A DNA stretch of 58,523 nucleotides from Nitrospirae bacterium MYbin3 (GTDB lineage: Bacteria > Nitrospirota > Thermodesulfovibrionia > Thermodesulfovibrionales > Dissulfurispiraceae). Positions within the stretch are counted from its first letter, which is position 1; every line of letters begins with the position of its first letter. A program made the position numbers. Shown in pieces: positions 54,001 to 57,000 of this stretch. The stretch spans positions 1 through 58,523 of the forward strand of contig PEAD01000019.1 in NCBI GenBank assembly GCA_002753335.1. Direction: 5' to 3'.

Positions 54001-57000
54001 CAAAAGCCCGTTCTTCTCTATCATGTTATTGTGCAGAACAATGTAGATATGAGTTATGAAATACACAATAACAGCCCACATAATCAGATGGTGAACAAGT
54101 CTTACACCCGAACCGCTGCTCCCTGCAGGAACGAGCCAGCCACCCATAAGCGTCCAGAAAATACCGCCGTCATGAGACTGTGAATACAAGCCAAAGCCTG
54201 TCTGTATCGCAACAAAGAAAAGCGTGTACAAGACAGCGTATGTCAGTCCGGCAAGGGCAGTATGCCCGGCATAATGTCCGCAGTCTCCCTTGAGAAAACA
54301 GTAAAACTGCGCGGTCTCGGTAAGATTCTGACGGCGTTCGCTGCTAAGCGGCAGATACTGGTTGAACTTTACATACTTGTTGCCTGCGAAAGCCCAGTAT
54401 ATCCTTACGAAAAACGCTACGGTGAATACATAAGCGAACACAAAATGCAGAAATCTCATACTCGCCATTATGGATGAGTTTTCTGAACTGCCCAATATAT
54501 AGGGGCTTGCGATATAAAAACCGGTTACTGACAACACTACGATGGACAGGACATCCAACCAGTGGTTTACCCTTACCGGCAATTCCCAGACATATTCTTT
54601 ATTCGCCATGGCCCCTCCTATTTCACTTTGACTTTAAACAGCTCTTTTCCCTCTGAGTCCACAAGATGCACCGCGCAAGCCATGCAGGGGTCAAAAGAGT
54701 GTATGGTTCTCAAAATCTCGACAGGCTTGTTCGGATCGGCCACCGGCGTGCCTATCAAGGCTTCTTCAAAAGGTCCCCTCTGGTTCTTGGCATCTCTTGG
54801 CGAAGAGTTCCATCCACCTGGAACTACGCACTGATAGTTGGCAACCTTTTTGTCTTTAATCACTACCCAATGGCAGAGCGTGCCGCGCGGGGCTTCATGG
54901 AAGCCGTATCCCTTAGCCTCTGCAGGCCATGTGGAAGGATCCCATTTGTCGCCGTTGTGTATTTTGTAGTCGCCTTTTTTGATATTTGCAGCCAGATCAT
55001 TAATCCAGACAGGCAGCATCTCTGCGGTTACAAGACTAACTACGCCGCGGGCTGCTGTTCTGCCAAGTGTGGAAAATAAAGCCGTAGGCCCTACTCCGAG
55101 TTTGCCAAGCACGCTGTTTACAACCTCAACAATCCTCTTGTGGCCTGAAGCGTAAGCGACCAGAATTCTTGAGAGAGGTCCAACCTCGGTCGAAAGGCCG
55201 TCATATCTGACCGACTTAACCCAGCTGTATTTCTTGTCGGTCTCGAGCCATTCGTAAGGAGGCTTGGGCCCTGTGTAGTTCGGAGTGGTTTCGCCCTCAA
55301 ACGGATGTCTGCCCTTCTTGTCATCATCACTGTATTTGTACCACGCATGAGCAACATCTTCGGTAATCTTCTTATGGTCAATCGGCTCGACCTTAGAAAG
55401 ATTCTTGCCTCTAATAAATCCTGCAGGCAGCCAGCAGTTGGTTGAGTTGCTGACGTTGTCCTTCTGGAAGTCGCCGCAAGAGAGGAAATTGCCTACGCCT
55501 GCGCCGATCCCTGCCCATTCCTTATAGAAGGATGCAACCGCAAGCAGATCAGGAATATAAACCTTCTCGACAAATTCCTGCGCCTTCTGCGCGTAGCCGA
55601 GCATCATCGCGATAGTTCCTGCGTTTATCGCGTTCTGGCTGTTGGGGTCTATCGGAATCGACATTCCACCCACTAAAAATGTCTGAGGATGAGGATTCTT
55701 TGCTCCAAGGAACGCCTGCATCTTGATCACGTCCCTCTGCCATTCAAGAGCCTCAAGGTAATGCGCAACAGCCATAAGGTTAGCTTCGGCAGGAAGCTTA
55801 TAAACAGAATGCCCCCAATATCCGTTGGCAAATATGCCCAACTGTCCGCTCTCTACAAGTGTCTTAACCTTGCTCTGTACGGTCTTGAAATAAGCGGCAG
55901 AAGAGTTGTGCCAGTCTGATATGGACTGAGCCAAAGCAGAGGTCTTAGCCGGGTCGGCCTTCAATGCGCTTACAACATCAACCCAGTCTAATGCGTGCAG
56001 ATGATAAAAATGGATAACATGGTCCTGAACATACTGGATGCCCGAAATAAGATTTCTTATAATCCTTGCGTTGTCAGGAATCGTAATATTAAGTGCGTTT
56101 TCGACAGCCCTCACGGAGCTGGTGGAGTGAACCGTTGTTCAGACGCCTCATATACGGGACAGAAGCGCCCACACCTCCCTAGGATCTCTGTTCTTCACAA
56201 TAAGTTCGATGCCTCTCCACATGGTGCTCGAAGACCATGCGTCAACAACTTTGCCGCCTTCTATCTGGGCTTCTATTCTCAGATGCCCTTCAATTCTGGT
56301 CAAAGGGTCAATAGCTATTTTTGCCATTCTATATCCTCCTCAATTATTTTTTATCTTCGGACTTGGATTTTGAAGACCTGATCGCAGCATGCACCGCAAC
56401 ACCTGCTGCTGCAGCGGCAGCAACACCCAGACCGATCTTGTCGGCTGTAGTCTGGTAGCCCGAGCCCGGAACATTAGGCAGTCTGGTGTACATAGAGCCC
56501 AACGCATCCCAACTCTGCGGCTGTCCGCAGGCAATGCAGCCATGACCTGCCATTACCGGCCAGCTCGTGCCTTCATTCCATCGTATGGTCGGGCAGTTCA
56601 TGTATGACTGAGGACCTTTGCAGCCCATCTCGTATAAGCACCAGCCCTTTCTGTGGCCGTCATCGCCCCACTTCCTGACAAACTGGCCTGCATCAAAATG
56701 TGTACGCCTCTCACAATTGTCATGGATTCTTTTTCCGTAAGCAAATAAGGGGCGGCCTTCCTTGTCGCACTGAGGAAGTGCGCCGAAGGTAAGATAATGG
56801 ACCACAGTAGCCGTAAGGTTTTCGCTGTTCATCGGACAGCCCGGCAGATTTATTACGGTAGCGTTAGGCACAGCCTGCTTTACGCTGACAGCGCCGGTAG
56901 GATTAGGAGCAGCCGCAGCCACTCCGCCATAACTGGCGCAGGAACCCACAGCTATTGTTGCGAGGGCGTTTCCACAAACCTCTTTTGCCATATCAATGGC

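Follow-up and report, generated by a model that had tools for sequence, protein, structure and literature searches.

The window analysed here comprises 58,523 nucleotides of contig PEAD01000019.1 from Nitrospirae bacterium MYbin3 and carries on its minus strand a hydrogenase operon (Table 1), in which profile matches agree with the order of small subunit, large subunit, cytochrome b, protease and HypC that had been given in the survey's finding. Gene callers break the large-subunit gene into two calls. Retranslation of the minus strand gave the one frame of 569 codons that had been proposed, opening at an ATG with a GAGGAGG ribosome site just 5' and containing two internal stops, both TGA, that fall in the motif R-I-x-G-V-x at exactly codons 60 and 63; the cassette reads UGA-GGC-GUC-UGA. 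The C-terminal motif translates as FDPCMACAVH, Cys only as had been claimed, and the two group 1 motifs L1 (RxCGxC, with U for C) and L2 (DPCxxCxxH) are both present. Alignment to HyaB places the TGA codons on Hyd-1 C76 and C79, given as the terminal and the bridging ligand in the text of Evans et al. (PMC8020662), and shows that Hyd-1 E28, V78, D118 (the canopy Asp), R509, D574, C576, C579 and H582 are all retained. Among solved structures the top relative is the A. vinosum enzyme (3MYR, 685 bits), with Hyd-1 and Hyd-2 types at about 560-617 bits and [NiFeSe] enzymes at about 290-320 bits. An AlphaFold model from 33 sequences had a pLDDT of 71.7, with values below 50 at both termini and at residues 504-508, and is therefore useless for active-site geometry.

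Table 1. Features of the hydrogenase operon, in minus-strand order (positions in the window)
Feature	Positions	Strand	Remarks
Sigma-70-like promoter match, 10/12, 5' of small subunit	57450..57478	-	consensus match only
Small subunit, TAT signal; proximal cluster motif C-A-G-D (Asp replaces second Cys)	56344..57414	-	
Large subunit of membrane-bound uptake [NiFe] hydrogenase, probably group 1f-like	54618..56327	-	569 aa with both TGA read through
TGA codon 60, terminal Ni ligand position (E. coli Hyd-1 C76)	56148..56150	-	alignment to HyaB
TGA codon 63, Ni-Fe bridging ligand position (Hyd-1 C79)	56139..56141	-	alignment to HyaB
Thr65 codon ACG, conserved synonymous site	56133..56135	-	candidate signal for first UGA
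SECIS-like hairpin	56105..56121	-	loop CGUGA at 56115-56111
Gly504-Gly505, replacing conserved Ser/Thr-Thr	54813..54818	-	504 aligns to Hyd-1 Thr532
C-terminal motif DPCMACAVH (C548, C551), Cys only	54666..54692	-	followed by protease-cleavable tail
Cytochrome b subunit	53959..54609	-	TIGR02125 above cut-off
Hydrogenase maturation protease	53457..53954	-	
HypC chaperone	53215..53493	-	

The operon combines a TAT-exported small subunit with a membrane cytochrome b, as expected of group 1. In operons of the 1c and 1e types the two subunit genes are separated by HybA/HybB or Isp1/Isp2 genes; here they are adjacent, with 16 bases between them. In the O2-tolerant 1d type, HoxK and HyaA have CTCC and extra cysteines for a [4Fe-3S] proximal cluster, and none of these extra cysteines occurs in the MYbin3 small subunit, which reads DCAGDSES where the references read ECTCC. 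The CxxD form of the small subunit was considered as a correlate of Sec state and rejected, as Asp was present in 25 of 36 UxxU, 6 of 6 CxxU and 3 of 6 CxxC motifs found and does not track across the three types. The Sigma-70-like promoter pattern was found at nine sites against 6.1 expected.

A search of the class (390 genomes, 1e-60) matched 288 genomes, and among the 150 best matches listed 122 had two TGA (in 121 genomes), 18 had one and 10 had none. The two-TGA matches were 68-100% identical with frames otherwise open, apart from one that also has a TAG. Of the 30 best loci, 25 read RIUGVU and 5 read RICGVU at the N-terminal motif, and all 30 are Cys-only at the C-terminal one, the very counts reported in the survey's finding. 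All single-TGA genes checked (15 of the 18) were CxxU, and UxxC occurred in none of them; CxxC was confirmed on fetched loci for the 10 matches without TGA and for five genomes of genus g86. Close CxxU and CxxC relatives are 70-76% identical, at times within one genome. The double-Sec form had been described as common across Thermodesulfovibrionia, which the count among the 150 best matches bears out, but it is not confined to that class: in a pattern scan of a collection of species-level genomes, 118 loci came from 23 of its 64 parts (about 350 stretches estimated); 75 of these loci passed a hydrogenase filter and 43 did not. By record title, the 74 loci of the main filter comprised 38 from Nitrospirota and 25 from Chloroflexota (mostly Anaerolineae), and the remainder came from Deltaproteobacteria, Methylomirabilota/Rokubacteria, Acidobacteriota and others. 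There is good support for programmed recoding of UGA at the two N-terminal ligand positions. In the protein database, 63 of the 120 best homologues start only after the N-terminal metal motif.

Trees were built from proteins of at least 520 aa. Excluded from them, and from the counts of Gly504 in tree rows, of small-subunit CxxD and of independent pairs, were two group 1a-like rows and 17 near-identical Cys-type database proteins. A branch with an SH-aLRT of 99 separates 133 rows from seven plasmid-record references (HoxG, HyaB, HybC and others). The 133-row clade includes P0111, whose source calls it 'hydrogenase, group If', and lies apart from the 1b, 1c and 1d references, so that the MYbin3 enzyme appears to be group 1f-like on a tree that is without a curated 1e or 1f reference set; its score of 635 for NF007778 is below the cut-off of 969. 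UxxU rows occupy most deep branches, and CxxU and CxxC rows are nested among them with 12 changes. Nested CxxC rows retain hairpin-shaped residues (TVHSTSSVR, TVHATASVR), which favours reversion, with the direction of change tentative since UxxU rows were sampled by pattern and CxxC rows by similarity to the query. A second lineage, about 30% identical and with group 1a [NiFeSe] enzymes as its best solved relatives, has UxxU in L069, L120, L143 and L157 and CxxU in L262; its C-terminal motifs are Cys-only where visible, and a hairpin lies in the same register in L069, L120, L143 and L262.

The downstream hairpin has its loop beginning 32 nt past the first UGA and 23 nt past the second. The survey's finding of a hairpin kept in place stands on comparative evidence and not on folding of the MYbin3 sequence by itself, which is no more stable than its dinucleotide shuffles (z from -0.48 to +0.83). 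Counted over distinct 60-nt stretches, all 83 UxxU and all 15 CxxU sequences have GTG as the Val codon of the loop, and none of the 12 CxxC sequences does; elsewhere in the hydrogenase genes compared, fewer than a third of Val codons are GTG. The stem covaries at pairs 33:43 (CG/UA), 32:44 (GC/CG) and 31:45 (AU/UA/GC), and it changes on both sides even where the amino acids change with it (S-S-V-R-A, C-S-V-R-A, A-S-V-R-S, A-S-V-R-G, A-S-V-R-C, C-A-V-R-A). Its first four pairs are present in 65/83 UxxU, 15/15 CxxU and 1/12 CxxC sequences; the other 18 of 83 UxxU sequences fold a bulged upper-stem variant with GUG unchanged, and the lower stem shows no conservation. Against synonymous-codon shuffles every UxxU and CxxU hairpin was more stable (mean z -2.25, n=92, and -2.45, n=15, respectively), whereas the CxxC stretches were not (+0.18, n=12). 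An RNAalifold consensus across UxxU contains just three pairs, owing to the presence of two different stem registers.

Other MYbin3 genes provide examples of each distance, the CGUGC loop of the SelD hairpin lying at 32 nt and the loop of a group 3 hydrogenase with CxxU at 23 nt, and one hairpin could thus plausibly serve both codons; the formate dehydrogenase hairpin has a 19-nt spacing. A single SECIS for both UGA codons was suggested for group 4 hydrogenases by Takano et al. (PMC13582414). Between the second UGA and the hairpin, the Thr65 codon is retained as ACG in 76 of 83 UxxU, 2 of 15 CxxU and 5 of 12 CxxC sequences, and a search for a partner pairing with it found no conserved helix. 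Kin are not independent, and on the tree the loop GTG gave two supported independent pairs, both in the expected direction; the pair tests for ACG, loop GTG and Gly504, with 2-7 pairs each, were in the expected direction or uninformative, and none was significant.

The hydroxyl and backbone NH of Hyd-1 Thr532 bind a cyanide of the Fe, as described in PMC5962704, and it is this residue whose counterpart is Gly504 in MYbin3. Among tree rows, 43 of 84 UGA-type sequences carry Gly at residue 504 and the other 41 keep Ser; none of 49 CxxC rows or seven references has Gly there. Gly504 is likewise present in 61 of the 63 truncated and 0 of the 57 full-length homologues among the 120 best in the database, and in none of 79 distant cluster representatives that cover the site (71 more do not cover it). 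On the tree residue 504 requires seven changes, and Gly turns up at five separate places, each among UGA-type rows, and the lone CxxC row nested in the main Gly504 clade has Ser. Since the pair tests were not significant and half of the UGA-type rows keep Ser, the link is only a hint, and Gly504 may hint at altered active-site chemistry in UGA-type enzymes.

The MYbin3 genome contains one tRNA-Sec (71.3 bits, anticodon UCA, G73) together with SelA, a single SelB and SelD, all above profile cut-offs and all as listed in the survey's finding; the SelD gene has one TGA of its own. SelA (349 of 390 genomes) and SelB (360 of 390) are near universal in the class, and their presence does not, therefore, mark out UxxU genomes. 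CysRS is present in one copy. The assembly is 93.7% complete, and 38 tRNAs were found in it, none for Trp or Tyr. Low-stringency Aragorn calls of a 'tRNA-SeC' (C36) and a 'tRNA-Cys' (C37) were rejected, being flagged as pseudogenes with poor pairing. TGA terminates 455 of 1424 frames of at least 300 codons, so that UGA is a normal stop and the code is standard in MYbin3. Three marks of a bacterial selenoprotein gene are found: UGA at a conserved Cys, a downstream hairpin with G in the loop, and selA, selB, selC and selD.

Both UGA codons are probably read as Sec by means of the one downstream hairpin, which would give a Ni(Se)2(S)2 site in an H2-uptake [NiFe] hydrogenase; this reading is put at a probability of about 0.78. 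Sec appears to be the best-supported residue at both codons, and recoding appears less secure at the first UGA (codon 60).

The main alternative, which is unlikely, is that a SelC*/tRNA-ReC inserts Cys in a SECIS-dependent manner at one of the UGA codons or at both, either always or when selenium is short, and the active site would then be ordinary, single-Se or a mixture. The survey's finding had cautioned that UGA might be read as Cys in some lineages, and tRNAs of the SelC* type (GCA anticodon, U73, long variable arm), reported in Thermodesulfovibrio by Mukai et al. (PMC5389517), do exist in the class: an exact pattern of the relatives' anticodon arm occurred in 119 of 390 genomes, with GCA in all 119 matches and one match for a reversed-pattern control, and 30 inspected loci were all tRNA-like with U before CCA. 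Takano et al. (PMC13582414) report an enrichment of tRNA-ReC among genomes with group 4 UXXU and state that forms with a GCA anticodon are able to recode UGA; about a third of the UxxU genomes here have SelC*, one of them a single-contig, 100%-complete genome (G039), and Cys insertion is possible in these. In MYbin3, however, BLAST, nhmmer, a permissive structural scan, the class pattern scan and aragorn found no SelC*, the BLAST, nhmmer and structural scans returning ordinary tRNA-Cys and tRNA-Sec only; with an exact pattern and an assembly without several ordinary tRNAs, a SelC* in MYbin3 could be missed. The pattern is also absent from a 99%-complete congener (G081) and missing in 82 of 121 UxxU genomes, with 0 of 12 positive in family f7. 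By type, it occurs in 39/121 UxxU, 9/18 CxxU, 4/10 CxxC and 69/244 other genomes (two UxxU+CxxC genomes and one CxxU+CxxC genome being counted in both groups, and the others including hydrogenase rows beyond the 150 listed). SelC* is thus absent from most UxxU genomes and shows no enrichment, from which it follows that UxxU does not need it. SelC* systems often have a second copy of SelB or CysRS, where MYbin3 has one of each. The confinement of Gly504 to UGA-type enzymes, for which a plain Cys reading would give no reason, suggests a chemically different site.

It had further been noted that one single-contig relative with the motif has no tRNA-Sec above the cut-off. A single-contig UxxU relative of this description (G345, which may not be the same one) has SelA and SelB and a tRNA-Sec below the cut-off, of which the 5' 52 bases are present at 94% identity and are followed by a gap of N; its missing tRNA-Sec is probably an assembly gap.

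Less likely still is that efficient Sec insertion is limited to codon 63, with codon 60 a leaky regulatory UGA serving as a selenium checkpoint and passed by low-rate Sec insertion or by a near-cognate Cys or Trp tRNA. Such an asymmetry would suit the repeated appearance of CxxU within the UxxU clade, with UxxC never seen, and the 32 nt between the first UGA and the loop, far from the 19 nt of the MYbin3 formate dehydrogenase. Yet the SelD gene of MYbin3 has the same 32-nt spacing and the same loop type, the first TGA is retained across several phyla, and the ACG site accompanies the first UGA in three of three independent pairs (not significant). A pseudogene, an assembly error or a genome-wide alternative code with UGA as Trp or Gly, to which the split gene calls and the database homologues without the N-terminal motif might point, is very improbable given the exact placement of both stops on two Cys ligands in more than 120 genomes, the intact remaining frame and operon, and the frequent use of TGA as a true stop in MYbin3.

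If both codons are read as Sec, SelB bound at the single CGUGA-loop hairpin would deliver Sec-tRNA at codon 60 and again at codon 63. U60 would then be a terminal Ni ligand and U63 would bridge Ni and Fe, while C548, beside the proton-gate Glu13, would stay sulfur, so that Ni would be coordinated by two Se and two S atoms. By analogy with the family, Hyp proteins would insert Ni and Fe(CN)2CO and the protease would trim the tail; the matured dimer would be exported by TAT to oxidise H2 outside the membrane, its electrons reaching cytochrome b by way of three Fe-S clusters and then quinone. On a broader scale, the chances are about even that a group 1 clade spanning several phyla has a native Ni(Se)2(S)2 site with a terminal and a bridging Sec from a single SECIS; in it the double-Sec form would be ancestral, with many reversions to CxxU and CxxC, the second shell would have adapted through repeated loss of the Hyd-1 T532 hydroxyl, and the same UxxU would have a place in the distant group 1a-like lineage.

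These enzymes are of interest in several respects. Work on [NiFeSe] hydrogenases had singled out Hyd-1 C576 as the place where Se helps, and here a natural enzyme has Se codons at 76 and 79. UxxU enzymes with close CxxU and CxxC relatives form a ready series for testing the role of Se at the [NiFe] site, and the same series suits study of one bacterial SECIS serving two UGA codons. For many uncultured Nitrospirota and Anaerolineae, databases contain the main uptake hydrogenase in truncated form, minus its first metal motif, and such entries can mislead motif-based hydrogenase surveys. UxxU also ties H2 oxidation in these organisms to Se supply.

Among known systems, N-terminal UXXU was published in September 2026, in silico, by Takano et al. 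(PMC13582414), whose text treats it for group 4 only, terms UXXU and UXXC previously unrecognised, and counts UXXU, CXXU and UXXC together in 47 of 23,473 sequences; the term 'Group 1' had no match in its supplements. In its passages on hydrogenases, a 2026 selenoproteome review (PMC13188914) names only UxxC for large subunits, and a 2026 transcript study of Thermodesulfovibrionia (PMC13657043) discusses group 1a and 1d hydrogenases in passages that leave selenium unmentioned. A search of the open-access literature, with subscription literature outside it, found no report of group 1 UxxU, which within those bounds appears new where UxxU in group 4 is known. The group 4 [NiFeSe] enzymes (PMC13582414) resemble the MYbin3 enzyme in having Sec codons at the N-terminal CxxC, a Cys-only C-terminal motif, one downstream SECIS with a loop G, and U and C forms interspersed on the tree. 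They are energy-converting complexes, however, and the MYbin3 enzyme is of the cytochrome-b-linked group 1 uptake type, its operon having no Ech/FHL-type cluster with antiporter subunits; the motif is rare in group 4, while in the class of MYbin3 at least 121 genomes out of 390 have it, and tRNA-ReC is enriched with UXXU there, whereas SelC* is not enriched with UxxU here.

Canonical [NiFeSe] hydrogenases (group 1a HysAB of D. baculatum, 1CC1, and D. vulgaris, 2WPN, and group 3 VhuU/FruA) share the fold family and a SECIS-directed Sec as Ni ligand. They carry one Sec at the C-terminal DPUxxC (Hyd-1 576), where MYbin3 has Cys and two other ligands are UGA; the MYbin3 large subunit scores below the [NiFeSe] profile cut-offs (NF033181, 530 against 600; NF045518, 389 against 780). 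In Cys-type group 1f and 1e enzymes the motif is CxxC, there is no GUG-loop hairpin and residue 504 is Ser or Thr, in contrast to UxxU, hairpin and Gly504 in MYbin3. Operons of the 1e type have isp genes between the subunits, and the MYbin3 operon is without them. The Cys-type 'group If' protein P0111 belongs to the same clade at 69% identity, with E13, D102, R481 and H554 conserved. Two group 1 and one group 3 CXXU sequences of Baltazar et al. 2011, as cited in PMC13582414, have their single Sec at the N-terminal motif; the group 1 pair shares the bridging Sec with the MYbin3 clade, differs from UxxU in having one Sec, and may well consist of CxxU members of that clade.

The nearest experimental counterpart is E. 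coli Hyd-1 as engineered by Evans et al. 2021 (PMC8020662), with Sec at exactly the two positions recoded in MYbin3. Its C76U and C79U variants kept 3% and 13% of native activity, respectively, and in both the KM for H2 was lowered and O2 was tolerated less well; the word 'double' is absent from the text of that paper. From these properties, the benefit of Se in the MYbin3 enzyme is probably not O2 tolerance, and higher H2 affinity or anoxic turnover would be the more likely gain. The Hyd-1 variants are single artificial substitutions in an O2-tolerant 1d scaffold, whereas MYbin3 has two natural UGA codons in one gene.

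Cys-type (CxxC) hydrogenase operons adjoin genes for SelC*-like tRNAs, possible SECIS-dependent readers of UGA as Cys, at loci L166 (genome G311), L169 (G325) and L219/L174 (G046), and both UGA-type and Cys-type hydrogenase copies coexist in G325, G046 and G026. The presence of both copy types in the latter three genomes suggests a low-selenium backup module. SelC*-like tRNA-Cys (GCA anticodon, U73) is frequent in the class Thermodesulfovibrionia, with 119 of 390 genomes matching the pattern, and many copies have a variable arm of 40-60 nt. Many genomes of family f9 carry two SelB copies, and in four genomes of this family, G170 (contig C20), G171 (C15), G178 (C108) and G184 (C228), a match to the SelC* pattern precedes a selB gene by about 100 bases; these pairs are candidate selC*-selB* operons of the class. 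A YeeE/YedE-like sulfur transporter gene (family assigned by eye) immediately follows the SelC*-like tRNA in G039 and G046.

Other UGA-containing genes of the MYbin3 genome (G000) are listed in the table. The group 3c-like large subunit has DPCLSC as its C-terminal motif and a hairpin in the same register as that of the window's gene, and is clustered with genes for a small subunit, a protease and an HdrA-like protein. A second, group 1a-like hydrogenase lineage with N-terminal UxxU or CxxU (U, putative Sec) was seen at L069, L120, L143, L157 and L262; it shares about 30% identity with the large subunit in the window, its C-terminal motif is Cys-only where visible, and the L120 small subunit bears a long, low-complexity Gly/Thr/Val-rich extension.

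Locations of SelC*-like tRNA genes and hydrogenase and selenoprotein features
Feature	Location	Remark
SelC*-like tRNA-Cys	L199:1497-1626; L216:2062-2188; L222-L251	
Group 1a-like large subunit	L069:1827-3497	
Group 3c-like (MvhA/VhuA-type) large subunit	G000:C63:30435-31940	outside window; N-terminal R-I-C-G-V-U
Formate dehydrogenase (UHSP), candidate selenoprotein	G000:C45:58	hairpin present
DsbA-like UxxC protein, candidate selenoprotein	G000:C8:36843	hairpin present
SelD, candidate selenoprotein	G000:C21:179458	hairpin present
Further frame with GCUT, candidate selenoprotein	G000:C46:39188	hairpin present
Small-subunit proximal Fe-S cluster motif DCAGDSES	window 57268-57248	second Cys replaced by Asp

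The residue at this proximal-cluster position differs from relative to relative, and the differences do not follow whether the large subunit is of UxxU, CxxU or CxxC type. In genus g86, all five near-complete genomes checked (L042-L046) have the CxxC form, the GUG-loop hairpin is absent from these five genes, and SelA and SelB are retained; this may be the reason that the UxxU variant went unnoticed.
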